From Takakia lepidozioides (Eukaryota > Plantae > Bryophyta), in the NCBI GenBank assembly GCA_030704615.1, contig CM060731.1, positions 15,376,001 to 15,440,000 on the forward strand: 64,000 nt of DNA, in the 5' to 3' direction. Of this stretch, positions 10,106 to 57,717 are shown in pieces. Every line of letters begins with the position of its first letter. The stretch's first letter is position 1. The notes beneath the pieces were generated by a model. The model had not been told where the DNA came from. It saw only the letters and a program-made list of their open reading frames with translations, and did not search any database. The translations under genes and the position numbers were made by a program.

Positions 10106-10249
10106 CTGCAGACCTCACAACTGGTAAGACCTCTTGTTCTTACTACTTGCTTATGCTAGATAGTCACATTACCATCCTGAAAGCTTTGATGAATTAACAT
10201 GCAATCAGAAACACAGAGAGGGCATTTTTGCCTCATTCATGAAGTCAAG

Positions 10250-12310
10250 TTCCTGCAAGCCACAGCCTTCCCATTTGCTGATTTTGAGGAACCTTGTCAT
10301 TGTTGCAGGGAACCCATACGCACAGGCTGGACATACTGTTGCTCCCACTTCTCATCCTCAAACCCACCCTTCTCCATCTGGCCCTTCATTTTTCTGTTGA
10401 TTTTGCAGAAGAGTCCAGTCATATCTCAAAAGCACAAGTGAGGATCCTGACCTTGGGCACTTCAGCCACCAACCACCTGCATCACCCAATTGACACACTC
10501 AGACAACTAAATCTGAGCCATCTTCCATGACCGCCATTAATTTCAAGGGACCACATGGAAAGAAATACCCCTCCCTACGCAAACCTTCTAATCATGTCCG
10601 GTCTGTGGTCCTCCAGAAAGTGAAGTTTAAGCAGCATCAGATGACTTTTCACACCATCAAGTGGCTCTTCTTAAATGATCATGCTAGTTGCTCCCATACC
10701 GAACAAACATAACCATGTGAGCCAAGACCCAAGACCCTTCAAGTGAGCCCTTCAAGTGAGACCCTACACTACTGGAGTGAGCCCCTCGCAAAGGTAGTGC
10801 CTGTGTTCCCAAACTGGTTACAAGGTCTATGGCCACAAGGCTACGGCAAACTAAGTCTTATGAGCACATTCTCTCTCTTTGTGTCTCTCTCTGTCTCTCC
10901 TCTCTCATGAGGAGACCGAAGCATCTATTTTTTCTGTTGATAGGGACAAAGGCCCTGATATACTGATAAGAAAGAGAGGAAGGGAGGGAGACAGAGAGAG
11001 AGGATGTACTCATGAGGCTTTTTTGCCGTAGCCTTCTAGCCATAGACCCCCCCGCACATGGACATATGGTGTGGATAGTAGGTTCGCATCTTAGTAAAAG
11101 AGATTCAATTAAAGAAGCTATAAACCAGAAAATGTGAAGGTTTCACAGAACAGGGGAAGGTCTCCGTAATTCATGATGTGCTGGGCCCTGTAGCGGCAGC
11201 ATACTAGAGGATATGTGTACACCTTCTACATGATCACCTATTTGTTGACTGGAATGGCTGAAAGGACCTCTCTTGCCTCTCCTCTCTTTGCTAGTATGAC
11301 CTGCTGCAGGGATGACATTGACAACAAATGTGAAGTGGTTTAAGCCTGGGGTTCCACAGGGATACTAACCTGTTGGTTTGTTGGTTGGCTCTGATGCATC
11401 CAGGTGACGCCACTTCACCTTCTTTTGTTGCAGGAAATACTACGAAGGGCAAGAGACTAAGGGAGAGTAAAGCTTTGGTTCTTGCAAGCCACATCCTTCC
11501 CATTTGCCGATTTTGAGGAACCTTGTCATTGTTGCAGGGAACCCATACGCACAGGCTGGACATACTGTTGCTCCATTTTTCTGTTGATTTTGCAGAAGAG
11601 TCCAGTCATATCTGAAAAGAGCGGTGCACAAGTGAGGATCCTACCTTTGGGCAGGCTATCGCGTACTTCAGCCACCAACCACCTGCATCACCCAATCGAC
11701 ACACTCAGACAACTAAATCTGAACTATCTTCCACCGCCTTTAATTTCAAGGGCCACATGGAAAGAAATACCCCTCCCTACGCAAACCTTTTAATCATGTC
11801 CGGTCTGTGGTCCTCCAGAAAGTGAAGTTTATGCAGCATCTTTTCACACTATCAACTGGCTCTTCTTAAATGATCATGCTAGTTGCTACCATAACGTACA
11901 AACATAACCATGTGAGACAAGACCCAAGACCCTTCAAGTGAGCCCTTCAAGTGAGACCCTACTATATTGGAGTGAGCCCCTCGCAGAGGTAGTGCCTATG
12001 CTCCCAAACTGGGCACAAGGTTTATGGCTACAAGGGTTCGGCAAGCTAAGTCTTATGAACACATTCTCTCTCTTTGTCTCTCTCTCTGTCTCTCCTCTCT
12101 CATGTGGAGACCGAAGCATCTATTTTTCTGTTGATAGGGACAAAGGCCCTGATATTTTGATTTAAGAAAGAGAGAAAGGGAGGGAGAGAGAGAGAAAGAA
12201 CGTAGTCATGAAACTTAATTGCTGAACCCTCTTAACCACAGACCCTCCCCCCAGTTTGGGCGGAAATACAGGGAACAAGCGCTACCTTTGTGAGGGACTT
12301 ACTCCAGTAT
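10250..12310 (+). repeat. Diverged local duplication (~10250-11045 vs ~11478-12250), each copy ending in tail-to-tail LINE 3' ends around (TC)n/(GA)n
   Basis: Near-identical blocks also occur inverted at 5432-5950. 11050-11235 copies 6560-6716, and 11236-11460 copies ~7388-7615. Confidence 0.8.
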
Positions 12311-13619: not shown

Positions 13620-14770
13620 GTATGTTATATTTTTGGAGGAGTATGTTATATTTGGAGGAGTACGTTATATTTTTGGAGGAGTACGTTATATTTGGAGCAG
13701 TACGTTATATTTGGAGGAGTACGTTATATTTTTGGAGGAGTACGTTATATTTTTGGAGGAGTATGTTATATTTGGAGGAGTACGTTATATTTTTGGAGGA
13801 GTACGTTATATTTTTGGAGGAGTATGTTATATTTGGAGGAGTACGTTATATTTGGAGCAGTACGTTATATTTTTGGAGGAGTATGTTATATTTGGAGGAG
13901 TACGTTATATTTTTGGAGGAGTACGTTATATTTTTGGAGGAGTATGTTATATTTGGAGGAGTACGTTATATTTTTGGAGGAGTACGTTATATTTTTGGAG
14001 GAGTATGTTATATTTGGAGGAGTACGTTATATTTTTGGAGGAGTACGTTATATTTTTGGAGGAGTATGTTATATTTGGAGGCGTACGTTATATATTTGGA
14101 GGCGTACGTTATATTTTTGGAGGAGTATGTTATATTTGGAGGCGTACGTTATATATTTGGAGGAGTACGTTATATTTTTGGAGGAGTATGTTATATTTGG
14201 AGGCGTACGTTATATATTTGGAGGAGTACGTTATATTTTTGGAGGAGTATGTTATATTTGGAGGCGTACGTTATATATTTGGAGGGGTACGTTATATTTT
14301 TGGAGGAGTATGTTATATTTGGAGGCGTACGTTATATTTTTGGAGGAGTATGTTATATTTGGAGGCATACGTTATATATTTGGAGGGGTACGTTATATTT
14401 TTGGAGGAGTATGTTATATTTTTGGAGGAGTATGTTATATTTGGAGGCATACGTTATATATTTGGAGGAGTACGTTATATTTTTGGAGGAGTATGTTATA
14501 TTTGGAGGCGTACGTTATATATTTGGAGGGGTACGTTATATTTTTGGAGGAATATGTTATATTTGGAGGCGTACGTTATATATTTGGAGGGGTACGTTAT
14601 ATTTTTGGAGGAGTATGTTATATTTGGAGGCGTACGTTATATATTTGGAGGGGTACGTTATATTTTTGGAGGAGTATGTTATATTTGGAGGAGTACGTTA
14701 TATATTTGGAGGAGGACGTTATATTTTTGGAGGAGGACGTTCTATATTTGGAGGAGGACGTTATATTTGG
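13620..14770. repeat. Minisatellite, 19/21-bp unit ggaggagtacgttatat(tt)tt
   Basis: More than 50 tandem units. The variants ggaggc and ggaggg appear progressively along the array. Confidence 0.97.
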
Positions 14771-15329
14771 ATAACGTAGTTTCCCAATATAAGGTCATAA
14801 GTCATTACTTAGCTTGTTCCGCAAGCTTTGGTCGACGGATGAGACATGAGACTCTGTGGGGCAAACGCAGGTGTCGCGTGTCGCGCGACTTGAGGGAGAT
14901 AAGCGAATCTTGGTTCTTTGAACGGATGAGAATGTGGGTGGGATGAATGAGCGACATCGTCAATCACGGCAGACGTGGGGTCAAACCCTGGAGTCGGCGT
15001 GTAAATCCTTTGTTTGGGCGAACGGAGTGCAAGTGGTGCGGATGAATGACAATCGTTGGTCACAGTATCAAACCCTGGTGCTAGCAAACATTTCAGGTCG
15101 TTTGCATGAATGAATGGAGTGCAGATGATTCGGATGAATGCAGCAGTTGATCATGGCATCAAAACACCAGCAAGGTGGATGAATTAGGGGACAGATCATG
15201 GATGAACGGTGACACATCCATCCATTTAAGCCACCTGCACTTAGGGGATTGGAGGCTTGATAATTTGTTGTGTAATTGATAATTATAAATTATGGCTCTT
15301 TGACTAAAGGGAAGGAAAGGGGTAAAAAC

Positions 15330-18845: not shown

Positions 18846-19039
18846 AATTGTTTGAATAGTAACTATGAATCTATAGAACAAATGTTAAACACACACAACT
18901 GGCATGAAATCATATTTAGATTCAATGCCCTCGGAGGGCATGTGCTAACTTTTTTTCATTACTCTGAATGGTGTGAAACAATACCACAGAGCTAGGAATC
19001 AAAGATACATTTCCAAAAATGTATTGCATACTGAAGCAA

Positions 19040-20260
19040 CATGCAATCACAAGATCCTACATGTCAAAATGTGATAGAAGGTCACATTTTCAAAGAAAAC
19101 AAAAGCTTCAAAATGGACCTCGGTTCTCTGGCCATAACTTCTTGTGATCTTATTCAATTGAGGTGAAACAAAATCTGAAAGCTGGAGAATCAAGGCACCT
19201 TTTCAATTTGATATTAAAATCTCACACAACATAAATCCACAACATTCTACAAGCCCAAATGTCAGAGGAGGTCACATTTTTAAGAGAAACCTAAGATCAT
19301 CAAGCTGGGCCTCGGTTTTATGGGCATAATTTCTTGTGGTCTTACTCAATTCAGGTGAAACAAAATCCCAAAGGTGGCGAAGCAAGTCAGATTTCCAAAA
19401 TAATATCACAAATCAATTCTTCATAAAATCCCAACATTTTACAAGTCCAAAGGTGAAGGCAGGTCACAACATGAAGAAAAACAAAATACTTCAAGATGGG
19501 CCTCGTTCTTCTGGGCATAACTTCGTGTGGTCTTACTCGATTGATGTGAAACAATATCCCACACCTGGAGAATCAAGCCAGCTTTTCAATGAGATATTTC
19601 ACTTACTTATCCTATAAAATCTAAACATTCTACAAGCGCAAATGTGAATGCATGTCACATTCTGAATGAAAACCATAGAACTTGAAGCTGCACCTCTATT
19701 TTTTGGGCATAACTTCTTGTGTTCTTACTTAATTGGAATGAAACAACAACAGACAGCTGCGGAATCTAGGTATCTTTCCAACAAGCCAACACATTCCCAT
19801 ATTGCATAAATTTTCTACATTGTGCAACCCCAAATGTGAATGTAGATCAAAGTATAAAGCAAAACAAAGTAATTGAAGCTGCACCCATATTTTTGGATAT
19901 AACTTCTTTAGATCTTACTCATTGGCATGAAATAATATCCCACAGCTGGGGAATCCATGTAGCTTTCCAAGAAGCCATCACATATCCTTGTAGCCTAAAT
20001 TCTCTACATGCTACAATCCCAAATGTCAAAGCAAGTCAAATTGTGAAGAAAAACAAAGTAGTTGAAGCTCATCCTCTATTTTTTGGGCATAATAAATTTT
20101 GTACTCACTCAATTGGCATAAAACAACAGCCTATAGCTGGGGAATCTAGGTAGCTTTCCAACAAGCCATCACACATCCTTGTAGCCTAAATTCTCTACAT
20201 GCTACAACCCCAAATGTCAAAGCATGTCACAATATGGAGAACCACAAAGTGCTTCAAGTT
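19040..20260. repeat. Tandem array, ~191-bp period, ~6 diverged copies
   Basis: Motif cctc..tgggcataacttcttgtg.tcttactcaattg at ~19118, 19310, 19501, 19693, 19884 and 20073. Confidence 0.85.
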
Positions 20261-20390
20261 CAATGTATTTTTTTTTTGTTCTAACTTCATGTCTGTGCTC
20301 ATTGTCACTAAACACACTCATGAGCCACAACAAACTAAGGGAATCAAGTGCTATCACCCACGGACGATGCGCCTGAGCCATCGTTTGGCT

Positions 20391-20946: not shown

Positions 20947-20974
20947 TTAAACTTCAATTAGCTTCAATTCAACC

Positions 20975-21800
20975 CATCCGTCATGATGTCATTTCTGCAA
21001 GTTTCAAAGCCCATCTATGCTTGCTTGCTTTGAACTTTTTGTTAACTTGTCCAATTTAGATGTGCTATGGCATTATAGAATGCTAAACAACTACTATGAT
21101 GTACTATGAGGGCCTTTTGAGGGTCAAAAGTCTTGGCAGATTCTTAGATAGCACCCATTAGTCGTGATGTCATTTTTGCAAGTTTCAAACCCAACCCATG
21201 TTTGCTTGCTCTCAACGTTTTGTCAACTTGTCCAATTTGGGTGTGCTATGGCACTATAGAATGCTAACAAACATTATAACATAAATATGGGGGCCTTTCT
21301 GGCTTCAGATTTTCTTTTCAGAGTTTTAGATGGCCCCGATCAGAATGATGTCATTTCTACAAGTTTCGAGACCTTCTCCTACTTGAACACCTTCAACTTC
21401 TTCTCAGCTTGTCAGATTCAGGTGTGCCATGGCATTATAGAATGCTAACAAGTAGTATGATGTAGACATGAGGGACTTTCTTCAGATTTTTTTTTTCAAA
21501 GCTTTAGATGGCCTCCATCAAAACTGATGTCATTTTTGTGCATTTCAGGATGAAGGCAAGCATTACAATGTACGTATGAGGACCTTACGTGTTGTCATTT
21601 CTGCAAATTTTGGATCCTTCACTTACTTGAATACCTTCTACTTCTTCTCAACTTGTCCAGTTGAGGTGTGTTATGCATTATAAAAATTCAACAAGCAAAG
21701 TTATAATGTACACATGAGGACCTTTCGAGCTCCAGATGTTTTTTCTCAGTTTTAGATGGCCCCCCTTGGAACTGATGTCATTTCTGCAAGTTTTGGGGCA
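20975..21800. repeat. Tandem array, ~181-bp period, 4-5 diverged copies
   Basis: tgatgtcatttctgcaagttt-like motif at ~20983, 21165, 21346, 21525 and 21774. Confidence 0.8.
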
Positions 21801-21878
21801 TTCACCCAAGGTCTTAGAGGTGTACTGCTCATAAATATACTTGGAATTTTCTGGACTCCTTGTTTCATGTGTTCACCT

Positions 21879-22042
21879 TGTTGTGCGCATACATATCGCT
21901 ACACAACTACATCGCTGTCCAAAACCACACAACACATGTACACACCACACACTAGTATACCACTAGTCCACCACTAGTCCAACCACTAGGCTACAACTAG
22001 TCAGTCACTAGGCTGCCACTATGGCAGTCACTAGTCCACACA
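21879..22042 (-). repeat. Terminal repeat segment A (outer copy)
   Basis: Direct repeat of 22374-22549 with ~5 substitutions and a 12-bp indel. Confidence 0.95.
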
Positions 22043-22043
22043 A

Positions 22044-22549
22044 TGATAAAGAAAGAAGAATACAAGCACAATCTCATGCGAGCTCACAAAGCTGAAGCAT
22101 AAACTCATGCATATATAAACTCATCATTCAAATACAAGTCAAGCCAAGTGCACCCCACACCATGGGGAATCCACACTACGGCGCCATAGCTAGGCGCGGT
22201 GAGGCTCAACTCGAGAAAGATGAGCCTCCCGCGCTTGCCGTGAAGATAACCACTCCAGGGCCTAAATCTGCCTTGACCCCTGGATTGACACTTGGGCCAA
22301 TCCCAAATGTCAATATGTAAAAGCTAGCTATTTCTTAGCTAGTTTCATACTAGTGGTAAAATAACTTGACAGCTGTCGTGCGCATACATATTGCTACACA
22401 ACTACATCGCTGTCCAAAACCACAGAACACATGTGCACACCACACACTAGTATACCACTAGTCCACCACTAGTCCAACCACTAGGCTACAACTAGTCAGT
22501 CACTAGGCTGCCACTATAATGCTCACTACGGCAGTCACTAGTCCACACA
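22044..22549 (-). repeat. Complete canonical 3' LTR (A'-gc-B in sense), preceded by PPT
   Basis: The sense strand reads GGGGGGCGAT|TGTGTGG...GACAGCTGTC...TTTATCA. The purine tract is at 22551-22559. Confidence 0.8.
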
Positions 22550-22559
22550 ATCGCCCCCC

Positions 22560-25500
22560 GCACCATCTCCCAAAACAGACCCGACCTCAAGTCTCGTAAT
22601 CCATTGCCATGCCCGGCTGATGAATGCCCTTGGCAAGGCCAACCTGCCACTACCAGATCAATGGAGCCAACCCGCTCCAAATCCTGCGCCCCCAACAACG
22701 AAATGTTTGCTGGCAAGGCCTGCTGATATCCACGAACTGCAGCCACCGGCAACAACTCAGGGTACCGCTGTACCAACTGAGCAATATGACGAAGTGAAAC
22801 ACGTCGTGCAGTCTCATCCCTCTCCACATACAGGTAACGCCGAACTCGTACACCTGCCTGTAACACAACAGCCAATCTGGTGTTGATCCCGTCAAACAAG
22901 TCTAGAAGACAAATGCCTTCATCCGGATACTGCCACACAATAGATGTGGTGTCCAATGGAGACAACTGAGGTGGTCCTGGTGCAATCCCCGCACTCTCCT
23001 CCTCTCCTGATGGTACAAAAGCCTCCACCCAGGCTTGTTGCACCCGTCGATCAGCAACCCGCTGCAAATCCTTGCTCGTGCCCCACAATGGAGTCTGAGC
23101 AACCATGGCAGGCAACTCCGCCATATCATACATGTTATCATGTTCTCCTCGAGGTATGTCATCCTCTGAATGAGCATTTCCCTCAAGCAACTCTCCAGGC
23201 CAAGTTGCTAGTGTCGGCACCTTGCTCCGCCGGGCAACCGCAACACCTCCTATAAACGTCACAGGGAGCTGCACACGCCGGCCCTCCCCTGACTGCCATC
23301 CAGGCCTATAGGAAGCTGACTCCTCCCAAAAATCCAGGGTGAAGCCCATGGGGTACAACATTGCCCCACTAACCAGGACATCGTACGAGACCGCGTCTGA
23401 CACAATGGCCTTGGCTCGCATCACTAAGCCATCTGTAGAGTGATCCGGCCGTAGTCTGATAGCCAACTCACGCCGTGTCATGCCCCGAGCCTGCTCCGAT
23501 CCTCCCAGAGACGTCTGTATCTGGAAAGGACAAGGCTCCATATCCGCCTCTGTGAGGCCCAAGCCTGCAATAGCAGCTCTGCCCAGCATCAATGGCTGAG
23601 CTCCTGAGTCCAACAAGACCCGCAGTGGCCGGTACCTCTTGCCTGCCGGTCCACTCAAATAGAAAATGTCATCCTGGTTGTCTAACATGACAACTCCAGG
23701 TGTCACCATGGCGCACTCAATGGCTGGCCTAGCTGGCAGTTCCATCAACCTGGCAGCTGCAGCTTGCCATGGCGCCGTCGTGGTAGTCTTGACCCTCAAA
23801 TCTGAGGATCCCTCCGACAGTACACCTCCCACTATCTCCGCAGAAGATGAAGTAACCTCCCCACTCTCACAGAGTGTAGCTGCCAGCCTGAATACCTCAG
23901 CTGGTTTTACCCCCGGCGTCGCAATCATGGTAGCCGAGAACAATGGAGCCTGACACACAGATGTGGCCGCTCCTAGCAGCACACTAGCTGCCGTAGCCTT
24001 GGCAACACTAGGTAGTGGTGTTACCCGTGTAGCTCTCCCCAATGGTGTAGTAACCTCCGCCTTGGTAACAGTCGGGCGAGAACTAGGTGCCATGGATGGC
24101 GTCGACACTGTCTCCGCCAATGTGAATGACTGAGGGAGCCTAGCCCGACGGCTTACCTCCCCACACTGTGGATACAACTCCACCTCTGCACCTCGTGGCT
24201 CAGGAACTCGTGCTGCTCCTCGAGTCACGGCTGCAGCAGACTCCACCTGCACTAGTGGTAGTGCTGCTCCGCACATGAATCCCATGCCTCCCATATCTCC
24301 TCCCTCAGGAGCAGGAGGTGGACCATCCGGCCTTGGAGCCGGTACCACCTGAGCTGTAGCCATGGCAGCGAGCCTCTGCTCTAGCTGCTAAAGCCGGTTG
24401 GCCATGCCTTGGTCAACACCTTGACCTCCGCGTCTTTGGCCATGTTGAGCTTGCCCTTGGCCTATACCCCGTGCCTCGCCACCTCGTCCTCTTTGGGCTG
24501 CTCCCCCTCGCCCCCGGCCACCATTGTTCCCTTGGAACTGGCCTGGGCGCAACTCGGGATGCAAACCATAACACTGGGCCTCTCCATGCCCGTGCTTGCC
24601 ATAATGCCCACACTGCAACTGTGCAGGCTGTGCATGTGCCGGCCCTTTGCCTCCCTCTGGACAATCCTTCTTGACATGGGGTCCTCCACATGTCCAACAC
24701 ACCACATCCGCCCGTTGTTGGCTTGCAAATGAAGGGAGAGACCCCTGCATCTAAGGTCCTCTCTGCCCTTCCCTGAGCTTCACCTGAGCCCCCTTGTTGC
24801 CTTGAGCACGTTGAGGTAGTGGTTGGCTAGGAGCACCACTACCCCGTGGTGTCTCCTTAGCAAATCCCACCATGACCACTCGTTCCTCCACCATGTTGAG
24901 CTCTATTCGCTCTGCCAGCAAAAACACATTTGCTAAGGTGGGTTGGGCCGCTTGTAGGAGAGTTGCATCCCGCACCCTTCTCCTCAGCTCCTTGTCCAAT
25001 ATCCCATACCAGAATTGGACTGCCTGAGCTTCCGTAACCCCTTGGGTTACATTTATCAAGCACATCATGCGAGTGAAAGCCTCCCTCAAGCTCTCAGTAG
25101 GCTTCTGTTGGAACTCTTGCAAGCTCCGCAACTTCTCTGTCTTCACCCCTTGGTAGTTCCTTCTCAACTCTTCGAAGAACTCCACAACAGGGTTGAAGGC
25201 AGGCACGGGTACTGGTGCTGGTGCGGTAGTGGCTTGGGTGGACGTCGTAGCTACGGTACCACCAGTCCTACTAGTCCTACTAGTCCCACTGCTGCTTGTT
25301 GAAGCTGCCGGTGCAGCGGCAGGTGTAGCCACTGCCCTCGTGACTCTAGTGCCCCTAGTGATGGAGACATAGTCGGGTGACCAGTACATCCTCCACTCCT
25401 CGATCTCAACCTCATGCCCCCGCCTGAACTCATGGTAATCATCCATAGGCGGCCTCTCAAGGTGCTGAAACAGCCCCTTCCATGTCATGAAAGGCGTAAA

Positions 25501-25850
25501 TAGTTATGGATTGCGCATTTGCTGCAAATCACACCAACTATCAAACTCTCGGATAAAATCATCCAACTCGATGGTGCCCACCGCCCCAGAGTACCTTCGT
25601 GGCCCCTTGGTAGCTCGATACATCTCCTCCATTGTGTCATACAACAATGGCAAGGAAACAACTTGCACCGCCGGTATGAGTCATCCTGATTCACAATCCG
25701 AATCAGAACCTTCCGTAGAAGACACAGGTGGTGAAGGTGGCCTAAACCGCACACCTCGTCTCGTGTACCCACTAGTATCGCTAGTGCTCGAACCGGCACT
25801 GTCCCCAGCAACTAGTGGCACCTCCGTGTTGACACTCAACCGGTCATAAA
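22560..25850 (-). pseudogene. gag-zinc knuckle-aspartic protease-DNMT polyprotein, truncated
   Basis: ORFs 25488-24751, 24750-24388 and 24363-22492 share one frame, split by single stop codons. Gag: EKLRSLQEFQQKPTESLREAFTRM. Knuckles: CWTCGGPHVKKDC and CGHYGKHGHGEAQC. Protease: VLLDSGAQ (~23594-23619). MTase motif I LLDLFDGI (~22890-22915) and motif IV DLVVAGWPCQ (~22630-22659). The start is approximate. Confidence 0.9.
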
Positions 25851-26569
25851 CATGTCCCTAACCCCCTCTCCACAAGGTAACCGGGTAGAGAACCTGTTGT
25901 GGCTTATGGTTTGGAATACTAAGTTCTTAACATAGCCTACACCTGTACCTGCATCCACCGCAAGCACTCCTATGGTTGGCTGGTCATCACCTCCAACCTC
26001 ACCACAGGAGAAACAATGATGGTCTGGCTGGTTATCACCCCAGCCTCACCATCGACAGCATGCTCTAGGACTGGCCGGTGATCAAATCCGGACCAATCAC
26101 CTATAAAAACAAGCGCTCACACAAAACTAGCATGTCGCACAGTCAAGCATGCAGGTATGGAGGGGATCCAAACACAAGAAATCAGAACGACAACTCCCCC
26201 ACACCAAAAACAACTCCACGGTGTTGCTCCTACAAGGACACCCCAGCCCAAACCCGGACTGACTCTTGCCTCCACCTACGGAAAGGTCTTGGCCTAATGA
26301 GAGGGTGGAAACTACGAGGAAGAGAAGCTAAAGCAATGCCTAACCCCAGCATGCCCTCATCCCAACACTCTTCATCTCCTCTCTTCCCTCACTTGCATGA
26401 CCATGGGAATATCATGAAGATACTCCTCAAACCGCCCTCCACGAGCTTCAAAATTCGGCCTTCAAGACCACATGCCAGTCCTTAGGCAGTCCACTAGTGC
26501 CTCCACGAGTCAGCACAGGCCGTCCACAGGTCAACACGGGCCACCATAGACCAGCACAGGCCCACACAG

Positions 26570-27575
26570 CTCACTGGTCACAACCGTCACAGCCCCACAC
26601 AGGCCACAACCTATCACAGCCCTACACATGTCACAGGGTCACAGCCCCACAGGCCGCAGCCTGTCACAGCCCGTCACAGCCCCAAAGGCCACATGTCATA
26701 GCCTGTCAAAGCCCCCACGGCCACAGGTCACAGCCTGTCACAGCCCCACAGGCCACAGGGCACAGCCTATCCCAGCCCGCCACAGCCCCTCACAGCCCGT
26801 CACAGCCCCACAGGCCACATGGCATAGCCTGTCGCAGCCCTACACAGGTCACAGGGGTCACAGCCCCAAAGGCCACAGCCCGTCACAGCCCCACAGGCCA
26901 CAGAGCACATCCTGTCACACCCCCTCACAGCCCGTCACAGCCCCACAGGCCACATGGCACAGCCTGTCACAGCCCTACACAGGTCATAGGGGTCACAGCC
27001 CCTCATAGCCCGTCACAGCCCCACAGGCCACATGGCACAGCCTGTCACAGCCCCTCATAGTCCATCACAACGTGTCACAGCGTGTCACAACCCCACAGGC
27101 CACAGGGCACAGCCCACCACAGCCTGTCACAGCCCCACAGGCCACAAGGCACAGCCTGTCACAGCCTGTCACAGCCTATCACAGCCCGTCACAGCCCCAC
27201 AGGCCACAGGGCACAGCCTGTCACAGCCCGTCACAGCCCATCACAGCTCGCCACAGCCTGTCACAGCCCGTCATAGCCCCACAGGCCACAGGGCACAGCC
27301 TATCACAGCCCCTCATAGCCCGTCACAGCCCCACAGGCCACATGGCACAGGCTGTCACAGCCCCTCACAGCCCATCACAGCGTGTCACAGCCCGTCACAG
27401 CCCCCGCAGGCCACAAGGCACAGCCTGTCACAGCCCATCACAGCCCCACAGGCCACTGGGCACAGCCCGTCACAGCCCATCACAGCCCTACAGGGCACAG
27501 GGCACAGCCTGTCACAGCCCCTCATAGCCCATCACAGCCCCATAAGCCACAGGGCACATCCTGTCACAGCCCGCA
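26570..27575. repeat. ~1-kb minisatellite (gtcacagcc-based 10-11-mers) in the retroelement 5' leader
   Basis: Dense tandem cacagcc(c/t)gt and ccccacaggcca units. Confidence 0.95.
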
Positions 27576-28059
27576 ACAGACCACTCATGACAGTTTAGCC
27601 ATTTCTCCAAGGGGTTTAGCCACGCTAAGCTAGGGTTTGTGTCTCTTGGACTCTAGACTTCTTTGCACCGAGCTATGGCGGCTGTGAAGAAATCAGCAAG
27701 GTATTCTTGCTCTTTCGGCTCCCACACACCACCAATAGTAGCCCTAAGCCATGAGGAAGATGGTTGCCACAAACCAAGCCTTCTTTCTCACTTAGACTCC
27801 TCAAACACGCCACTAAATTCAATGGCAAACAACCAAGCTTGCTGGTTTCTAGCCCTTGTGAGCACTCATTCAAGCATTTCCCTTGGTCATAGCATCTGTT
27901 TTAGAGCCTATTCCAGCCCCCTACACCTGCCACTTCAAGAGCCATGCTCTATCTAGGCTTGAGGTTGAAACTCCAACTCATGACACGCTCTACAAGTGTC
28001 GGACTGTCACATAAGAGCAGATCAGCTCCTTACCTTCTCTTCTAGTTCTCTAAAGCTTG

Positions 28060-28420
28060 AAAACAAAAGCCCAATGGGCTGAAGGCATGCTCCACACATG
28101 CCCCACTCTCACCACGAGAGAATCAGCACCTTTGCTTTCTTTCTTGCACCCACCAACCTGAAAATACACGCTTCAGCGGGCTGGAAGCATGCTCCACACA
28201 TGCCCTACAGGGAAACCAGCCCCTTCCTTCATTTCTTGCACTCCCAAACCTGAAAGTACAAGCCTTCAACAGGCTGAAAGCATGCTCCACACATGCATTG
28301 CTCTCACATAAGGGAAGTCAGCCCTTCCCTCTTCCTTGCTTGCCCTCCAAGCTTGAAGATGGAAGCTTCAATGAGCTGAATACATGCTCCACACATGCAA
28401 CCTCTTCACACAAGAGGTAT
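28060..28420. repeat. Four ~100-bp tandem units in the retroelement leader
   Basis: ctgaa.gcatgctccacacatgc at ~28079, 28182, 28274 and 28376. Confidence 0.8.
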
Positions 28421-28949
28421 CAGCCCCCTATCTTGGCTCCTTAGCTCCTTGATGCTCTCTAAGACAAGACTAAGCACTCCACAGCCCTTGCCAAGCTCCT
28501 GAAACCCTAATGCTTACATTTCCAGCCACAAGACACTCATTTTGTGGTGTAAGAACTCTTCTTCCAAGCTCTGAAACCCTAGGTGCACATTCCATGGCCT
28601 TGCCGCACCTCTTAGCTCCTGTTCCAGCCCTGCTCATGCCATGACAAGAGCCCTCTTAATGCTGAAGCTCGAGATTGAAACCCAATCTCAACATACTCCA
28701 CAAAGTGCACTGATTTGCCCCAAGCCAAATCAGCCCTTTTGCTTGGTCTTGCAATCCTGCAGCATGGTGCTTTCATCTCTGAAGCTGAAGATCGAATGCC
28801 AAGGTCTACCACCTCGTAACCCACATCGCCTCCGCTTCTAACAACCAAGAGCTCCACGGTGCTCCTTGCATAACAACTTGGTTTCTCTCATTCTCAAGCA
28901 AAAACCACAAGTGCTACAACTAACTCGTATCTGGCACTCACAGATACGA

Positions 28950-28965
28950 GCTCATCTTTCTCGAG
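28950..28965 (-). promoter_or_regulatory. Putative self-priming primer-binding site
   Basis: Sense CTCGAGAAAGATGAGC directly follows the CA of repeat B'. It is complementary to 22210-22225 (16/16) and 29131-29146 (15/16), and lacks the TGG start of a tRNA PBS. Confidence 0.7.
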
Positions 28966-29292
28966 TGATAAAGAAAAAGAATACAAGCACAAGCTCATGC
29001 GAGCTCACAAAGCTGAAGCATAAACTCATGCATATATAAACTCATCACTCAAATACAAGTCAAGCCAAGTGCACCCCACGCCATGGGGAATCCACACTAC
29101 GGCGCCATAGCTAGGCGCGGTGAGGCTCAACTCGAGAAAGATAAGCCTCCCGCGCTTGCCGTGAAGATAACCACTCCAGGGCCTAAATCTGCCTTGACCC
29201 CTGGATTGACACTTGGGCCAATCCCAAATGTCAATATGTAAAAGCTAGCTATTTCCTAGCTAGTTTCACACTAGTGGTAAAATAACTTGACA
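28966..29292 (-). repeat. Terminal repeat segment B' (5' end of element)
   Basis: ~98% identical to 22044-22371 (about 7 differences, mostly transitions). Confidence 0.95.
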
Positions 29293-31036
29293 ACCTAAAT
29301 GGCAAGTCGTGGTGGGAAAGCAACCGACACATGTACGTAAGAGTTCATCACAATCAATTCGCAAGACTTGTCCATTGAGTTCCATCCCATATTATTGGGG
29401 TGCGCTTTATGGGGGTGCGCTACAAGCGCGTTGGCTCGTCGGCGAGGCTTGTCGCCCCATATATAGAAGTGCTACATAGGGCCCAACCTCAAAGGGGGTC
29501 ATTAGCCGTAAGACAAAATGACTCTTAGTTACGCCGGCTTTGATCGGAGTTTTTTTTTTTTTTTTTTCTCTAGAAGTGCTAATTGTACTTGGCCGTTTCT
29601 GTCCGTTTCCTCCCTTAAATGGTAGGCTGGTACATGAAAGGACCATTTTATACTACAATAAAACACAGACTAATTTGAGAGTATCTCTTGTTAGTTTTTT
29701 TTTTTTTTGAGTGAACAAGGGACAGAGCCCTGACTTCATTTTATTGAGTTTATTGCGGGGAAAAAAATTAAAACCCTTGGTTACGCCGTGAGGCCGACAC
29801 ACCATAGTCAGTGAAAGACGATTTAGTTCTAGATCTGGATGTTATGTACTTCATTACATTACAATATAATTATGTTAAACTAATTTATAATTATAATAGG
29901 GCAGGGCTCGCATGTATTCCATGCATTTGTTTTGACGATGATTTTCACAATGCTCGCACTCCTTCAAATAATTTTAATGTCAAGTCTTTTGCATTTTTTC
30001 TTCTTTATGGATCTTTTCCGTGGCTTCACCTCTTCAGTCTTCCTTTTGTTGCCACCGCCCTCCTGGCTCAGAAAGGAACAAAAGAGCGCCGAATTCGCAG
30101 CAGAATTAGAGGCTATTGGTGAATAAGCTATACCGTCGCTTTGTTTGGTTATGTTTTTTTTCTTAAAAAACAAAAGGTAACGGCGCCCCTGTTAATCAAA
30201 TTAAAAACAAGGAATTAATAACCTTGGGAGTGTCGACGATGAAGCACCCATGCAAGATCAATTTCCTTCTTGGATATATTTTCGACGCACCACAAGCTTA
30301 TTTGTGTGGTGATGACAAAACGAAAGATACTAGATACTTATTCCTAAGACGCTCATTCATGGTTGGATTGTGTAAACAGTCCTTCTGTCTGTGCAATCTG
30401 TGACTCATTTTCTTGCTTTGTTTACGGATTGTCTGCAGACACCCACTATCACTCATCCACAATTTCTTAGTGGGGCTGAAGCGCATGTTGCCTAACGGAT
30501 GTTGAAGACATGCTGGTTGGATGTTTGCTTATGTAGAAGAGAGACTAGGCATCATGTTACAAGTCAACGGAGAAACAAAATGTGGTCAAAGGACCTTACA
30601 CCGTGTCAAGGCACTGATTGCTATGCTCACCGCCCCCTTATGTTTTGTCATCATGAGAGCCCATTGCCGTTTGAGGCTTGTTTTAGACTAGAAAAACTGA
30701 AAATGTTGCTCCTAAGTTTGGAAGGGGTTGGAGCGAGAAGATGATCAGCAGTGCAATCTCTGGGGTTGTCTAATTGCTCAGTCGACATGTAAGAGAGTTT
30801 GATCACAGTGTAGGTTCACCACGACTGTCCACCTCCCAAGATATTGGGAGAGAAAGGTAGGAAGGGGGAAGTGTGACGAAGAGAGAGAAAGAGAGAGAGA
30901 GATAGAGAGACTCTGGATATGTTCAAAGAGAGTCATCATCTTCTTCGTCTTGTTGATCACATTGAGACTTTTCTGTGAAGAGTTGGCGTTCTGATCTTCG
31001 TGCCTGGTAGGTGCCTTGTCCTTAATGCCCTAGATC

Positions 31037-34000
31037 ATGGTAGGAATGAAGGCGCGAAGCAGTTCTCAAGTTCCGGGTTGCTCGCCCTTGTCGATCTTCG
31101 CAGGCATTGCACTCGTCCTCGTTACATATGCGTGTAAGTGGTGCTTATCATGCAATTGCCTGGATGTTGTTTGGAAAGATCCTGCGTTGCAACTGTGGAT
31201 CCATTATCTCTTTGCAGGTAGCTGCCCCTTTAGTTGCTTCTCCATACAAATGTGGCGGTTTGCAGGATTTTTTGAGGGTACCTAGTTTAGTTCCAGACCA
31301 AATGAGGACTGTTGATGAGGATTTGGAAGTGAATCTCTGTTTATACTGGCAGGCACGCGGCTACTTGGTGAGGGTCCAGGGGTGCCTTGCGACAATCAGG
31401 AACAGAGCTACGAGGGCCCGCTGCTCCAAAGGAGTGGGCTCTTCAAGTATTATGGGAGCCTAGCCGGTGTGTTTGGGCATTGGACCAAGGGATGGCCACA
31501 GCGAGGTTACGGAACCCATCTCTCACTCCAAATTTATGTGTACGAGGTGGATGAGATTGACGGTCTGAAAGAGCTTCTTGGTGGCCGTGACCACACCATC
31601 AACTTCACGTCTTGTGTGAAGGGGCAGTGGGGAACTCAGGTCCGTCTTTTCTCCCATTTTTGTCTGCTGTGCCCAAGCAAATTGTAGCTTTCAACCCGGA
31701 TCTCGCCTTCAAGGATTTGTGAATGTTTCCTGGACCAGCACTGAGAACTTTCTGGCTCTGCCTAGATACAAGTTAGGCGAGTGATAAACTAGATCCCTTT
31801 CAGCTCAAGACACAAAATTCACATACATCTGGTGTTGTAAATCCACCTCCCTCCCTCTAACCAGGTTCATTTTCCTCTCTTAGTTTTGTGCATCTCTTTC
31901 CGCCTTTGTTCTTTCTGGACTGTCTCTAGCTAGCTGCCCATCTGTGTATTTCTCTGATTCTTCTTTCACACAGAATTTTCTTTGGTTTCTCTCTCTTTTT
32001 CCTCCACGTCATGTCTGGTCTCTGGCTCTAGTTTTCTCTCTGAGGTTTCATGAATTTCCACAATATCCTATAGATTGTACTCATAAGACGTTGTTTGCCG
32101 TAGCCTTGTGGCCATTGACCCCGCGCCCAGTTTGAGCGGGAACAAAAGGGACAGAACCTACCTCTGTCAGGGGCTGACGTTGGTAGTGTGACTTACCATC
32201 ATATATAGAATTAATCCAGGTTTTCCAGATATCCTCTAGAAATCCCTTCACACAAGCATCAATCTGCTGTGTGTGATTTGCCTAAAAACTAGGCCTCAGG
32301 AGGGCCTGGGCTTTTGGCTCAGCCTCGAGACTTTCAAAATTGTTAAACAGGGGAACAGGCACAATTCCCTTGATAGAGTTGAAGAGAGCGTCTCTTTGGT
32401 GAGAGAACCCCGGACAGTGTATCAGAAAGTGAATACTGTCTTCAGATTGCCCACACAGCGGGCAATTGCACTCTCCCTTTCCTCTCTGCTTCTGTTTGCT
32501 GTTCAAAGGTAGGCTTCCTGCCCTGAGTTTAAATTTCAGTCTAGTGCCGAGAGTGGGTAGACCCTTGAGGTCATCCAAGATGTCCTCCCCCATGTCACTG
32601 ACTGGAAACAAGTTCAGGGAAGTTTTCTGCCTAACTTCATTTTCATCAGACAATCTCATGGCAACAGACATGGCTGAGGACACTACAGCCTCTAAGTCAG
32701 ATTTACCCAGCAGGGTCAAGGCTTGCGGATCCAGGTCCAGGTCCTTGAGAATCTCTTCTACTCTCTTCTGCCAGGACTTAGCCTGTTTGACAGGGCGGTC
32801 CTTTTTCCAAGATATAGAGTCGATTAACTTAGGATATCTGGTGTTGGGCATATGTTGCAGCTGACCCCACCATCTGACCTTGAATTCATCTCGTCGGGAG
32901 CTTAAGGACGGAATGCCAAACTCACCCCGAACAGCCACATTGGCTGTTTTGGAGCATGCTGACATACACGCCTTAAGCACCCCCACTTGAATGGATTCTA
33001 GAGACTTAGCCTGGTTGGAGTTATCAACCCATATAGCAGATCCGTACTCCAAGGCAGGTCTAATAACGCGACAAAGCATGGTTTTCTTAACCTCAGAGTT
33101 GACCCCTCTGCAGTGGAAAAATTTAGTGAGCCCCAGAGCTTTGCCCTTGCCAGTTTGAACAACTTTCCGGATGTGCATCCCAATTACAATTGGAGGAAAA
33201 CTCAACGGCCAGGTAAGTGTAGGAAGGGAGGACCGGGATCTCTTGGCTACCCCACTGCCACTTAAGATCACTTCCTCCCTCTCCTCTGTCGTTGAATGCT
33301 ACCACTGCACATTTGCTGACATTAGCCTCTAGCCCCCAAAGATCAAAGTATCTCTTCGCGCAATCAATCAACTCCTGGAGATTGGTTGGAGTCTCCCCTA
33401 TGCCTGCAAAGTCATCCGCAAACATAAGGGCTGGTATGGTGGTATCACCCACCCTTAACCCAAATCCCTCACTTTCCACATCCTCGAGGAGTTGATTGAT
33501 GAAAACATTGAAGAGCAGAGGGGAGAGAGTACATCCTTGAGCTACACCTTGGTCTATGTCAAAGAAGTTGGACTTCTGTCCGTTAACAGTGACACAGCTT
33601 TTGGTGTGAGCATACAAGTTGTGGACAACTCTCCACATCTTTCCCTTGATCCCACAAGACCAGAGGCGGAACCATAGGCCATCTCTCCACACTGTGTCAT
33701 AAGCCTTTTTGACATCCAGGAAAAAAACATAAGTGGGTTTCCCTTCTTTTTTCCTTCCCTGGATAATCTGGCTTAGAGTGAAGATATGATCCACACAGCC
33801 CCTGTTTCGCCGAAAGCCAGCTTGGCCTTCGTGGAAACAACCTCTAGACTCCAGATCAACCTCGAGACGAGTACTTATAACTCTGCAGAATGTCTTGCCA
33901 ACAGCATTGAGGAGCGTGATGCCACGGTAGTTCCCCGGTTCTTCTCTGTCACCCTTCTTGTATAGATTGACAAAGAGAAAGAGCAAGTGGACTTGGTTTG

Positions 34001-34554
34001 TCATAGTTTTGTTTCAGCAGACTTTGGATAAAGACTTTTTCATGGTTGGGACGGTGGGATGCCATGGGAGAGCAGGCTAAAATCTACAATTTATTTCTGG
34101 AGTCAAGCTTTCGCACCCTGGATAAGGAAAAGGCAGACTTCTTTTTTGTGCCCTCGTACGTGAAATGTGTACGGATGAAGGGAGGCCTCACTGACTCTGA
34201 GATCAGTGACACATATTTGAAGGTGAGCTTGAAAATGCTGTTTGCTTGGTTGCACACCATTGGACTGCACACAGTCAGAGAGAAATGTACTCATAAGGCG
34301 TTGTTTTCCATCAAGAATGTACTCATGAGATGTTGTTTACTTTAGCCTTGTGGCCATAGAGGCTCCCAGTTTGGTGGAAGAACAGGGAACAGACACTCAC
34401 TTTGTGAGGGGCTCACTCCAGTAGTGCGGCTTACCCTGGTATAAACAATTGGTTTGGGAGTTGCTCTAGAAAGCTCTTCATCAATCTGCTGTGTGTGAGC
34501 TGCAGAGCAATTACATCCTTAGACATGTTTGCTAGAGAGAGAGATGTACTCATA

Positions 34555-34586
<32 letters not shown>

Positions 34587-37500
34587 CTCATAAGACGTTG
34601 TTTGCCGTAGCCTTGTGGCCATTGACCCCGCGCCCAGTTTGAGCGGGAAAGAGAGAGAGAGAGAGAGAGAGTTAAGTACTGGAAAACCAGGCTTACTTGC
34701 TGCATGAAGAGCAATCGCCTCGTATATGTAGGCTACCAAGCATTTCCGGGCTTCAAATGTGATGTCTCTGCCACGGATTGTCAATTTTTGAAGAGCCAGT
34801 AGTATCTTTCTTGAATATCATAATATGCAGAGACACAGAGAAAGCATAAGTGGGGAGGGCGCTGCATGGGGTTTGGCAAGCCCTTAACTCTAGCATAGTT
34901 TGGTGTAAGCTCCTAGATGGGTGGAAGTGGTTATGGTATCACTGAGGGAGGTCATGGCACATGACATTTTGATACAGGTGGTAAAGCAACTGCCTTATTT
35001 CCGGCGCTCTGGAGGGCGGGATCATATATTTGTCTTCCCGAGGTATCATCCTGCTTAGTTTCACTATGGGCGATAAATCTTTCTTGTCCACCTGTCCAAT
35101 ATGGCCAAGATTATGATCAGTACGGTGTAATAAGTCTAATATATTTTTTTTCTCTGTCCTCCTCAGAAGACTACAGTGAGCATATGAGTACATCTCTCTT
35201 GCTCTCCTCCTGCATACAAATTGAAATTGTGGAATGCCTGAGCAGCTTGGTGGCAGGATTTTAGAGAGAGATAGTAATACTATTAACGCTGTAGAAAACA
35301 TGGTTACTTGTCTCAGTAGTAACTTTGTTTTCTCCAAATTTGTGTCTGAGCTGCAGCCTTGATGGTTGATGGATGGTCGGCATGCAGTGGAGCTGGAGCT
35401 CATTTGGTCAAGGACTGGGCTCTCTACCTTAACCGTTCCATATTCCTCACTCCTGAGGTACAGTCACACTTTTGCGCTGCTCTTCCAAATTAGCCATGTG
35501 AGGCAAGAGACAAATTCAAACCCAGACTTGAACCCAGAATGAATATGGTGAAGCGATAGCTAAATCAAAACTATTTGATTAGGTAGGAGATTTGAAGATG
35601 AGGTAAGAGATTTGACTGATTTGAAGTTTCGACTTACAATTGTGGAGCAGGGAGATCGGACAGACAAGCGGAGTAGCAGCGCATTCAACACATGGAAGGA
35701 TGTTCTCATCCCTGGTAATGTTGACAATGGCATACCTTTTGCAGCATCCATGGTGAACTCAGTTATTAGGCCTATGCCTTTGGGAAAGCGAAAGTTTGTA
35801 GCCAACTTTCTGGGCCGAGCACAGAGCAAACATGGTCGACTCCAGCTTATTGAGCTTGCCAAGCAGTTTCCTGATGAGGTCTGCTCTTTCTCTCACTTAC
35901 TCTGCTAATAACCACCTCCAACACCTGTTCAGGTCCCAAAAGTGGTGTTGTCCATGTATACACGGTCTATTTTGTCCATTGGAGGTTGCATTTTGTATTG
36001 TATGGAATTTAAAGGAGGAGGTTGTTTTTACAGTAAAGAGAGAGGTTACGTGTCCCGATGAGGCCTGCAGCATTGTTTTTTGACATCAATGGAAGCCCCT
36101 TATTGTAGCCATTCTGCCTTTATAGTGACACACATGACTTTCAGAGACCATTAAGCAGATTTCGTCTGTGTGTTTGCATTGCGGTGCAGTTGGAAGCTCC
36201 TGTGTTGGAGTTTCGAGGGCCTGCAAAACTGGATCATAAGGAGTATTGGACACACATGCGGAATGCCAAGTTCTGTTTAGCTCCTCGTGGGGAATCCTCA
36301 TGGACTCTCCGCTTCTACGAGGCTTTCTTTGTGGTTAGTACAAATATTCCAAGCAAGAGAGTTGAGAGTAAACCCTATTTGTGTGTTGCTCCATCCCTGG
36401 GACTAGAAGGAAGAAGAAGGAAGACTCTTGCCGAAGCACTTATGGTGTCATTTCACCCCGAAGGGCTTCTGTTTGGAAGGTGGACACCTTCTAACGGCCG
36501 TAACCGGGGCAACGCAGTTGCCCAACCCTCCCCCAAGGACTTGAAAGTCCCCAGGTACCCACACATTAGTAACCGGTTGACCCAGGTATCCCCTTTCTAT
36601 GGCTGGGTTGACCATAGAACACCGTACAGGAGAAAACTAGTACCTTGGGCCATTTGGCGTCGGCTGGTGTGCACTATTTTCTGGGGCCAATCATGTACCA
36701 CCATGCATCTTTTGCAAGTTGTTACCCACTACGTGCTACCACATGTCCAAAGTGGGCTTCAGAACCGACCATTCCTCTTCTATAATGTGTGCTACTATAC
36801 AAACGAAATCTCGAGACTCTGGAAGTCTCCAAGGCCTTGTGAGCGAATGGCTGACAAGTAGCAGGGCATGAGGATGTTAACCCCCATGTTGAGGAAGTCA
36901 TTCTTGTGGCACAGAGTTTTGGGGTGAGCTGGTGTATTGGGCCTGTGTGTATCACATTGATCATTTGAGGTTCCGGTCTGATCAGCCTCGGACAATATGT
37001 TTGGTACATCCGCTGATCTGGTCTTCACTCCTCCAGGTCCTCTCAAGGCCTATGTGAAGCGAAGCCTTCTGGCTGATCTAGCAGGCCTCGCAGAGCTGTC
37101 CAATACCTATGATACAAGTCGATTGTGATGCACCAATTTGAAAAATCATACCTCTTATCTCTATGTATTCTGGTGCATGAACAGGAGTGTGTACCGGTGA
37201 TATTATCAGATGAAATAGAGTTACCGTTCCAGAATGTGCTGGACTACAGCGAGTTCTCCATAAAATGGCCCACTTCTCGTATTGATGAAGACCTTCTGCA
37301 ATATTTGCGCTCGATCCCTGGTACTCTCGCTCTCTCTACACATGCATGGGCTAATCCAATTCACTTTTTTGTCTCCATAATTACTCATTCTTCTGAGACT
37401 TTTACTGGATTTTGCAACAACAGCTACATGTCTGACATCTATGTAGAGGTAGAGAGCTACATTGTCAGTCATATAATGAATATTAGAACTCCGTGATTTT

Positions 37501-38487
37501 ATTACTCAATGATCAATACTGTTGTGGGCTGTGTTACTGCTATGACAATATAGGTCAGAGTTTGATATCTATTGAATTAAAACTCTTAACCACCTTCAAG
37601 AGGGTTATTAACTCAATGGGACTATGCCCTTAATGTCAAAGGTTATATCCTGGGATCAGTCAATTGTACACATCTCTCCCCCACTTGTACATCTCTCTCT
37701 CATCTAGACGGAAATTTAAACTCAGGGTGGGAATCCTACCTTTGAACAGCAAACAGATGCAGAGAGGAAAGAGGGATTGCAATTGCCCGTTGTGTGGGCA
37801 ACCTGAAGACAATATTCATTCTCCGATTCATTGTCCTGGGTACTCTCATGAGAGAGACACCCTCTTCAAATCCATCAAGGAATTGTGCCTGAACCTCTGT
37901 TTACCAACTTTGAAAGTCTCAAGGCTGAGCCAAAAGTCCAGGCCCTTTTGGAGCCTAGTTATTGGGCAAACCACACACAGCAGATTCATGCTTGTGTGGA
38001 TATCTGGAAAACTCGGATTGATAGTCTGTTCTAAGGTAAGTCGTACTACCGGCATCAGCCCCTGACAAAGGTAGTTTCTGTCCCTTTGTGTTCCGCTCAA
38101 ACTGAGCACGGGTTCAATGGCACAAGGCTATGGCAAACGTCGTCTTATGAGTACAGTTTCTCTCCCTCCACAATATGGCAGAAGCTTTGTGAAATAAATA
38201 CTGTTGATTAATCTACTTATATTCTTCTTTGTCGATGTCTCCTCTTTTTTACTGCAGAATATGATATTGAGAGAATGATAGCGCGAGGCAGATCAGTGCG
38301 GTGTCTGTGGGTATATGCCCCCGAAAATGAAGGATGCACAGCTATGACAGGTATTCTATGGGAGCTCCAACGCAAAGTGCGCGTATTTCATCAGTCCTAT
38401 GAAACTTTCTGGCTGCACAATGAGTCAATCGTTGATCGTAACCTACTCCCTTTTAAGGACTGGAGCCCTCCCTTCCCAGTGCCATAA
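31037..38487 (+). CDS. GT47 exostosin-family glycosyltransferase (At1g21480-like), 9 exons
   Basis: GT-AG exons 31037-31133, 31353-31639, 34076-34222, 34978-35042, 35388-35457, 35651-35878, 36190-36333, 37185-37320 and 38258-38487. Motifs IYVYE, ADFFFVP, SGGRDHIFVFP, KFCLAPRGES and ECVPVILSD..LPF. Confidence 0.93.
32070..33965 (-). mobile_element. 5'-truncated non-LTR retrotransposon (RT plus C-terminal CCHC; RTE/RTEX-like) in GT47 intron 2
   Basis: NYRGITLL, QAGFR, FLDVKKAYD, GVAQGCTLSPLLF, FADD and CPLC..EDSIHFLIHC. One frameshift near 33160. Direct repeat tatagattg at 32069-32077 and 33961-33969. The clade assignment is tentative. Confidence 0.92.
34278..34650 (-). mobile_element. Cluster of LINE 3'-end fragments embedded in (GA)n
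   Basis: Repeated tgtactcata/tgtactcatg tail ends at ~34287, 34318, 34545 and 34583. The last copy is identical to the tail at 32075-32140. Confidence 0.85.
37700..38165 (+). mobile_element. LINE 3' fragment in GT47 intron 8
   Basis: KFKLRVGILPLNSKQMQRGKRDCNCPLCGQPED matches the 32-kb LINE C-terminus and ends in the shared tail. Confidence 0.9.
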
Positions 38488-57677: not shown

Positions 57678-57717
57678 CGCGTAAACACTAGATAAATCAG
57701 ACAAGCTACAAACGTTC

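Follow-up and report, generated by a model that had tools for sequence, protein, structure and literature searches.

KnitGypsy-Dnmt3 of the alga Klebsormidium nitens is the described system whose layout stands closest to the element reported here; the legend of Fig. 4c in PMC5890265 notes its DIRS-like repeats (A-coding region-B-A-B) together with Gypsy domains. Our element lies in a 64,000-nucleotide stretch of the moss Takakia lepidozioides (GCA_030704615.1, contig CM060731.1, positions 15,376,001 to 15,440,000 of the forward strand), hereafter the window, and belongs to a family of Ty3/Gypsy long terminal repeat (LTR) retrotransposons carrying a C5 DNA methyltransferase (DNMT). Both families combine a Gypsy polyprotein containing a Dnmt3-like domain with A-coding-B-A-B repeats, a likeness drawn from the description. 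The available passages of PMC5890265 do not mention target duplication, an internal attachment palindrome, priming or a mechanism. KnitGypsy-Dnmt3 was described from one alga, whereas the relatives found here include proteins of Marchantia, Sphagnum, Closterium, Haematococcus and Monoraphidium; no K. nitens-labelled protein is among the relatives listed. In the texts searched, the term 'KnitGypsy' occurs in no other paper. The first-pass annotation of the window knew of no description of such a family. The layout is not wholly undescribed, as the legend of PMC5890265 Fig. 4c notes it; for the mechanism we found no description in the texts searched. The mechanism is likewise absent from the available passages of 10.64898/2026.05.21.726589, PMC12344493, PMC9940879 and PMC9977147, and a search outside Repbase, theses, most subscription journals, figures and preprint supplements found no LTR retrotransposon described as having an internal attachment site.

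Three other systems share parts of this organization, as far as the cited excerpts describe them. In the Tf1/sushi and Tcn1 group (PMC7175516, PMC6317226), the primer-binding site (PBS) likewise pairs with the first 11-12 nt predicted for the element RNA, and some lineages make 4-bp duplications as the window family does. These elements have one LTR per end, whereas the window family has a PHD finger, a DNMT and ends moved into U3. The repeat order of PAT, Ngaro, VIPER and TATE is identical to that of the window family, but they encode a tyrosine recombinase (PMC6681497) and the relatives of the window family a DDE integrase. The integrases of foamy virus and HIV-1 can cut the palindromes of 2-LTR circle junctions (PMC1180852, PMC4372172); as proposed here, a DDE integrase thereby makes two ends competent for integration out of one palindrome. 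In these viruses the palindrome arises where the two genome ends meet, and cutting it gives back the usual linear genome, whereas in the window family it lies within each LTR, is the sole site used, and a permuted insert results. The active Chlamydomonas element Gypsy-7a_cRei has a PHD finger, 'LTR subparts' and a left LTR that is 8 bp short (legend of PMC9940879 Fig. 6A).

The window copy spans 21879-29292 on the minus strand, with ACCT directly outside each end. In the sense direction the order is B1-PBS-leader-gag-protease-half DNMT-polypurine tract (PPT)-A1-GC-B2-A2 (Table 1). The element begins with TGTCAAG and ends with CACAACA, and its inner A1|B2 junction reads CACGACA-GC-TGTCAAG. B1 (327 bp) and B2 (328 bp) are 97.9% identical, being 6 substitutions and 1 indel apart; A1 (177 bp) and A2 (165 bp) differ by 4 substitutions and one 12-bp indel, and the 3.3-kb leader contains tandem arrays. 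As in Ty3/Gypsy elements, the PBS follows and the PPT precedes the LTR defined by reverse transcription. The coordinates first given, the order B-PBS-...-PPT-A-gc-B-A with ACCT flanks, the TG..CA ends, the loss of the central GC and the palindrome at 22368-22377 were all present as stated. A supposed CA-t-TG junction stood in part: the joint exists, but both A copies begin TTGTGTGG, so the 't' is most plausibly the initial base of A, and the B|A joint flush. The 64-kb window holds this one copy only. Our reading, which we consider highly probable, is that a DNMT-carrying Ty3/Gypsy family starts and ends at a palindrome within its LTR, likely through a cut made there by its DDE integrase; host repair is predicted to join the complementary DNA (cDNA) ends, and the window holds an internally deleted copy.

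Copies elsewhere in the Takakia genome end at the same positions. Contigs of public runs were aligned to two short stretches of the window, and their loose ends and depth were read. Runs X1 and X3 are one sample, possibly the source of the window, and X5, X6, X7 and X12 come from four other studies; X12 is guessed to be RNA. Among the loose-end rows listed, ends with mixed sequence occurred at the outer A end (21879) in 47 X1 contigs, part of which represent the A-gc-B junction, and in 22 + 7 X3 contigs. They also occurred at 22374 in 35 X1 contigs and at the B start (22371) in 18 X3 contigs, with single cases at the element ends in X5, X6, X7 and X12. In the rows listed, a single sequence, the PBS, followed B near the end defined by reverse transcription (18 contigs, agreement 0.96), and one common stretch preceded the PPT (16 contigs, agreement 0.91). 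Ends at the internal palindrome are a trait of the family, beyond the window copy, and the prediction that other copies share both ends agrees with the many varied flanks at exactly these ends. Summed contig depth was 57 on the flank but about 1e6 across A and B; by this depth, which is not a copy number, the family looks very abundant.

Complete ends and target sites were examined at related loci from a metagenome scan, for which the best 80 of 215 confirmed loci were kept, mostly of two subfamilies. Loci with the same flank were merged before ends were counted. All 17 distinct 5' ends read flank|TGTCA-B-PBS-like. A preceded B in none of them, so the complete LTR at each end that is usual for Ty3/Gypsy was not found, and the suggestion that this was a one-off event among ordinary A+B LTR copies was not borne out. 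Among 29 3' ends (L045, with its site deleted, was excluded), 12 read A-nn-B-A as predicted, 14 read A and then flank, 2 left the contig within B, and one (L058) differed; DIRS-like split direct repeats (A-ORF-B-A-B; ORF, open reading frame) are present. Both ends were available for 11 other insertions. Seven had exact 4-bp duplications bordering TGTCA...CACGACA ends, all different as anticipated (TACA, CCAC, CCAA, AATT, CATA, CATC and GGTC), and two had duplications one transition apart (GGTA/AGTA and GCTA/GTTA). With the window counted in, 8/12 insertions combine TG..CA ends with an exact duplication, in eight different 4-mers. Exact matches were found in 0/132 non-cognate flank pairs, a control run with the end coordinates of L065 and L095 slightly off; at the chance rate of 0.0099, 7/11 gives P about 3e-12. 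The target sites have no motif in common. The upstream LTR copy was cut in 13 insertions (window included) and the downstream copy in none. The B|A joint was flush in 8/13 and carried lesions in 5/13 (window included), with long losses in L065 (about 147 bases of A) and L090 (about 215 of B) and microhomology loss in L069 and L090. One insertion, L076 (5410-5421, 14485-14500), lies in another LTR and has an aberrant right end, with an extra AC followed by a possible 6-bp duplication with one transition.

The palindrome GACAGCTGTC has a single match in the window, where 0.11 are expected by chance and at least one was reached in 10/100 shuffles. By itself it is weak evidence, and its weight comes from conservation across groups. 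Five groups carry CRCGACA-GC-TGTCA inside the LTR: the window copy, both subfamilies, the L004/L050 group and L098. Their integrases are 42-65% alike. The site with a 2-nt spacer was found in 15/15 internal A|B junctions of the two subfamilies plus L004, L050 and L098. Spacers other than GC were AC, GT and AT (10, fitting deamination of CAG/CTG) and one TC, always 2 nt. L098 has the site about 65 bases behind the PPT, within another domain order. Compared with L004 and L098, the window A-gc-B gave no significant match, the only long exact word there being the site; its match to L083 consists of the last 45 bases around the site and one 45-base piece of B. The ends defined by reverse transcription drift, from TTGTG..TATCA in the window to GTTGT..TTTCA and ATACA..TCAAT, and the LTR so defined in one subfamily starts ATACATG and ends TTCAAT. 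Since the inner site is kept while these ends drift, the comparison indicates selection on the inner site and not on the ends. TGTCA agrees with TGTYANR, the 5' integrase motif of Sushi elements (PMC3601003 Table 3). We can only guess that the site, given its resemblance, is a captured ancient end-to-end junction.

The enzymes of the relatives belong to the Ty3/Gypsy type. The two main subfamilies are 47-49% and 29-30% alike to the window protease-DNMT. Of the 120 relatives listed for the methyltransferase domain, 97 have the integrase domain rve (PF00665), most of them with PHD; Closterium, Haematococcus and Monoraphidium are the named sources among those listed. Stored proteins have the order reverse transcriptase (RT)-DNMT-integrase in 68 cases and DNMT-RT-integrase in 9. 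L004, L083 and L100 carry DNMT, RT, RNase H, H2C2, rve and PHD, and these three and P0014 have the order gag-protease-RT-RNase H-DDE integrase. The best PDB match of the RT is Ty3 Gag-Pol (E 6.7e-100), and the top 29 PDB matches of the L004 DNMT domain are all DNMT3A/B/C; a Dnmt3-like domain is thus present within a Gypsy polyprotein (PF00145, PDB matches). No tyrosine recombinase was found in 37 stop-free frames of at least 110 aa on both strands of L004, L083 and L100, part of 61 listed, those of L102 and L027 being left out. As expected for autonomous relatives, these three elements encode an rve integrase instead.

In these proteins the catalytic E of the integrase lies 35 residues after the second D (D-34-E) in 85/87 motifs found (P0013-P0131; L004:5274-6191), and alignment to the Ty3 and foamy virus integrases leaves a one-residue gap in this span. 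An in-frame stop separates DNMT and RT, reading TAG-CAA-TCA in L004:3489-3497 and TAG-CAG-TTA in L050 near 5083. UAG-CAR-YYA is a leaky stop context, and six stored proteins end at this position, so the stop is likely read through. L098:602-7465 is a distant relative with the order RNase H-DNMT-integrase-PHD; three extra sense-strand ORFs (267, 378 and 512 aa) precede its PPT, followed by the common palindrome. L004 is a near-complete retrotransposon of the clade, collapsed to a circle, in an assembly labelled cyanobacterium, and P0070 is labelled bacterial; both labels probably reflect contamination. A pattern scan of genome contigs gave 20 loci, of which only L004 was real. Viral contigs yielded no relevant locus on scanning (L001 is a phage methylase and L002 had no match), and L087 and L099 carry repeats of a different LTR family.

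The window PBS is not of the transfer RNA type; all 12 nt pair exactly with 29142-29131, a site within B. In 18/18 elements the bases after B1 pair with a site in B, the best 11-mer having 0-2 mismatches, compared with 3.3-4.5 on average for control 11-mers. The paired sequences differ between four groups, and L027 pairs best at a site other than the homologous one. TATA occurs at -29 to -32 of the predicted start in L004, L050 and L100 (3 of 4 relatives folded), and none was found upstream of the predicted start in the window copy or L028. The predicted mode is Tf1-type self-priming. A1 and A2 of one element have 15 private minor alleles in common, compared with 5 in common by position, and B1 and B2 of one element were closer to each other than to the mean of others in 6/6; in the three-member subfamily the A signal was absent in 1/3 and marginal in 1/3. 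Private alleles common to both copies support the view that A1/A2 and B1/B2 are recopied from one template in each cycle, as LTRs are. Reverse transcription would then yield A-gc-B at both ends, and A would have to move from front to back afterwards.

We propose the following pathway. The RNA would start inside B1, end in B2 and self-prime as in Tf1, and reverse transcription, as the allele patterns support, would restore a whole A-gc-B LTR at both ends. From the end structure, integrase would bind the upstream LTR at CACGACA-GC-TGTCA and cleave each strand at CA^GC with a 2-nt stagger, leaving two CA-3' ends with GC overhangs; CACGACAGCTGTCA is the site sequence predicted to undergo this cut by the family integrase. 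CA-3' ends with 2-nt overhangs are the form that DDE integrases insert. Insertion of these ends 4 bp apart at unrelated targets would give the product that is seen, and the staggered cut would explain both the lost GC and the 4-bp duplication. End-joining of the unused cDNA ends would place A behind B, and the losses or changes at 5/13 joints are what such joining would be expected to leave. That the joining precedes integration, in a 2-LTR circle whose upstream site integrase already occupies, seems to us somewhat probable, and that it follows strand transfer is possible but doubtful. A free 2-LTR circle carries two equal palindromes, and the 13:0 use of the upstream one would require integrase to commit to the upstream LTR, which presumably becomes double-stranded first, after the second strand transfer. 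Copies with A only may stem from later A1-A2 recombination, assembly collapse, 1-LTR circles or a double cut. The proposal that the attachment site of a Ty3-like family moved inside the LTR stands; the accompanying claim of circle-first integration goes beyond what the 13:0 upstream cut shows, joining afterwards fitting equally well.

Several observations weigh against this pathway. No cDNA intermediate was seen. A free circle predicts B-A-B..A copies too, and none was found in 17 5' ends. PPT-A-flank alone, in 14/29 3' ends, is not given directly by the simple model; L058 continues from B into unrelated non-A DNA, and two of the 11 insertions (L076 and L095) lack a duplication. Joint-spanning deletions in Takakia were not enriched (6/13 vs 4.7 expected, P 0.26). 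The related loci come from short-read metagenome contigs that cover a repeat and may be chimeric, L004, L050 and L098 show the internal site with no layout or duplication visible, and the loose-end rows used in Takakia were 22 of 212 and 16 of 155.

A pathway with no circle, in which integrase cuts the upstream LTR of linear cDNA, keeps the short A fragment and the long remainder together in one complex and inserts the two, and leaves host repair to join the free ends in the chromosome, is the strongest rival, although we judge it rather unlikely. It would explain more easily the sole use of the upstream site (13 to 0), and failed joins could account for L058, where non-A DNA follows B, and for L095, whose flanks do not match. 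It needs a chromosome break per insertion, and yet 8/13 joints are flush and 9/11 flank pairs match. Still less likely is an end-to-end template jump by RT that makes the B|A joint, with integrase trimming concatemer-like cDNA at two palindromes and a double cut of the monomer or of a 1-LTR circle giving B..A-only copies. Those 14 A-only 3' ends, the exact or one-transition duplications in 4/5 two-ended A-only copies and the microhomology loss at the L069 and L090 joints fit this route. However, no concatemer was seen, and L073 and L102 are one site in both states (A-only and A-nn-B-A), so that B may have been lost there later or in assembly. An ordinary tyrosine-recombinase element (PAT/Ngaro/VIPER-like) with a chance ACCT match would have the identical A1-ORFs-B1-A2-B2 order, as the excerpts of PMC6681497 give it; it is refuted for the families seen, and we regard it as very improbable, because rve is present, 0/37 ORFs of three elements encode a recombinase, the RT is closest to Ty3 in PDB, PPT and PBS are present, and the 4-bp duplications vary. 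To our knowledge, PAT/Ngaro-type elements make no variable target duplication. A one-off accident (autointegration or aberrant circle insertion) or misassembly of the locus would fit the single copy in the window, but is hardly credible and, as an accident, refuted at family level by the same ends in dozens of Takakia contigs and 11 two-ended insertions elsewhere, while single-copy-depth contigs crossing from the flank 27 bases into A2 speak against misassembly.

We return to the preferred reading, a cut at the palindrome inside the LTR. The family represents a real, conserved variant of Ty3/Gypsy integration, whose layout has been noted before and whose mechanism we did not find in print; new here are the predicted self-priming, the private alleles of A1/A2 and the sole cutting of the upstream LTR copy. 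A wider proposal, which we put forward tentatively as a fairly even matter, is that a clade of DNMT/PHD-bearing Ty3/Gypsy elements in green algae and bryophytes abandoned its LTR termini and integrates only from circles (2-LTR, perhaps 1-LTR) opened by a DDE integrase at one U3 palindrome. Its layout would be convergent with that of tyrosine-recombinase elements, and cutting palindromes would be the natural specialty of its integrase, which has one residue fewer between the second D and E. Retrovirology has long asked whether circles are integration precursors, and regards them as dead ends or a side route. In the natural family described here all insertions seen derive from a cut within the LTR, and with named Marchantia relatives the circle question becomes testable with one palindrome and one enzyme. 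If internal cutting is true, circular or end-joined DNA, usually a dead end, becomes a working step of transposition. The gain could be that attachment no longer depends on exact cDNA ends and that circles are no longer a sink. A possible delivery tool would be an integrase able to open circles at a 14-bp site and insert them. Split direct repeats are no proof of a tyrosine recombinase. Annotation pipelines, as described in passages of PMC6317226, require two like LTRs with TG..CA and a duplication, and those that do so would miss this family.

The window copy itself has no RT, RNase H or integrase, the stretch from mid-DNMT to the PPT being deleted. Its methyltransferase half matches PF00145 (E 2.7e-7) with an intact PCQ motif and is cut off by the deletion. 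The protease (PF13650, E 0.037) falls below the curated cut-off, as do both gag matches (PF03732, E 5e-4; PF00098, E 0.21). Among named relatives of the protein, those of Marchantia (43-55%) and Sphagnum fallax (38%) come closest, and the linker-protease-DNMT part is 50-55% alike to the best Marchantia polyproteins. Other Takakia copies read through both sides of the deletion break; at 22557-22558 the methyltransferase goes on in 23 X1 contigs, 1 in X7 and 1 in X8. The loss of RT and integrase is therefore a deletion in the window copy or its sublineage. This copy would have moved in trans, or been deleted after insertion.

Table 1. Features of the Takakia element in window coordinates.
Feature	Position	Strand	Remark
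Target-site duplication ACCT	21875..21878	+	downstream side of element
A2, terminal copy of first part of U3, 3' attachment end CACAACA	21879..22043	-	varied flanks at 21879 in public contigs
B2|A2 joint TTTATCA|TTGTGTGG, flush fusion of both reverse-transcription-defined LTR ends	22043..22044	-	
B2, remaining U3 + R + U5 of downstream LTR	22044..22371	-	97.9% to B1
Internal attachment site CACGACA-GC-TGTCA	22367..22380	-	holds palindrome GACAGCTGTC (22368-22377)
GC spacer between A1 and B2	22372-22373	-	absent at both element ends
A1, first part of U3	22374..22550	-	right after PPT
PPT GGGGGGCGA	22551..22559	-	internal deletion ends here, about 22557-22559
Linker + aspartic protease + 5' half of C5 DNMT	22560..24387	-	protease about 23479-23631
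gag, two zinc-knuckle-like motifs	24388..25632	-	frame common with protease-DNMT, 3 in-frame stops
Degenerate tandem array in leader, 10-bp unit	26572..27572	.	about 87 copies in 26657-27540
Four diverged ~100-bp repeats in leader	28004..28427	.	
Perfect hairpin, 10-bp stem	28924..28950	-	directly behind PBS, read from sequence
PBS CTCGAGAAAGAT	28954..28965	-	pairs with predicted 5' end of element's own RNA
B1, element 5' end, TGTCAAG start	28966..29292	-	predicted promoter, R, U5
Predicted transcript start + self-primer ATCTTTCTCGAG	29131..29142	-	within B1
Target-site duplication ACCT	29293..29296	+	upstream side of element

The surroundings of the insertion are rich in repeats. Degenerate tandem repeats with units of about 181 bp and about 191 bp lie beside it (window 20972-21806 and 18959-20273, respectively), and an array at 13620-14771 (period about 61 bp, 85-94% alike) has three open frames on the plus strand. 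A set of long repeats, both inverted and direct (82-97%), occupies 5428-7613 and 10249-12249, with further pieces of the set at 32072-32544, 34314-34668, 37704-38168 and 62848-64000. Two overlapping ORFs at 32282-34013 on the minus strand resemble a long interspersed nuclear element (LINE) reverse transcriptase. Host exons presumably encode an exostosin-type glycosyltransferase (36109-36861), a trichome-birefringence-like protein (43778-44743), an EXORDIUM/PHI-1 protein (56658-57740) and eEF1B-gamma (61836-62465).

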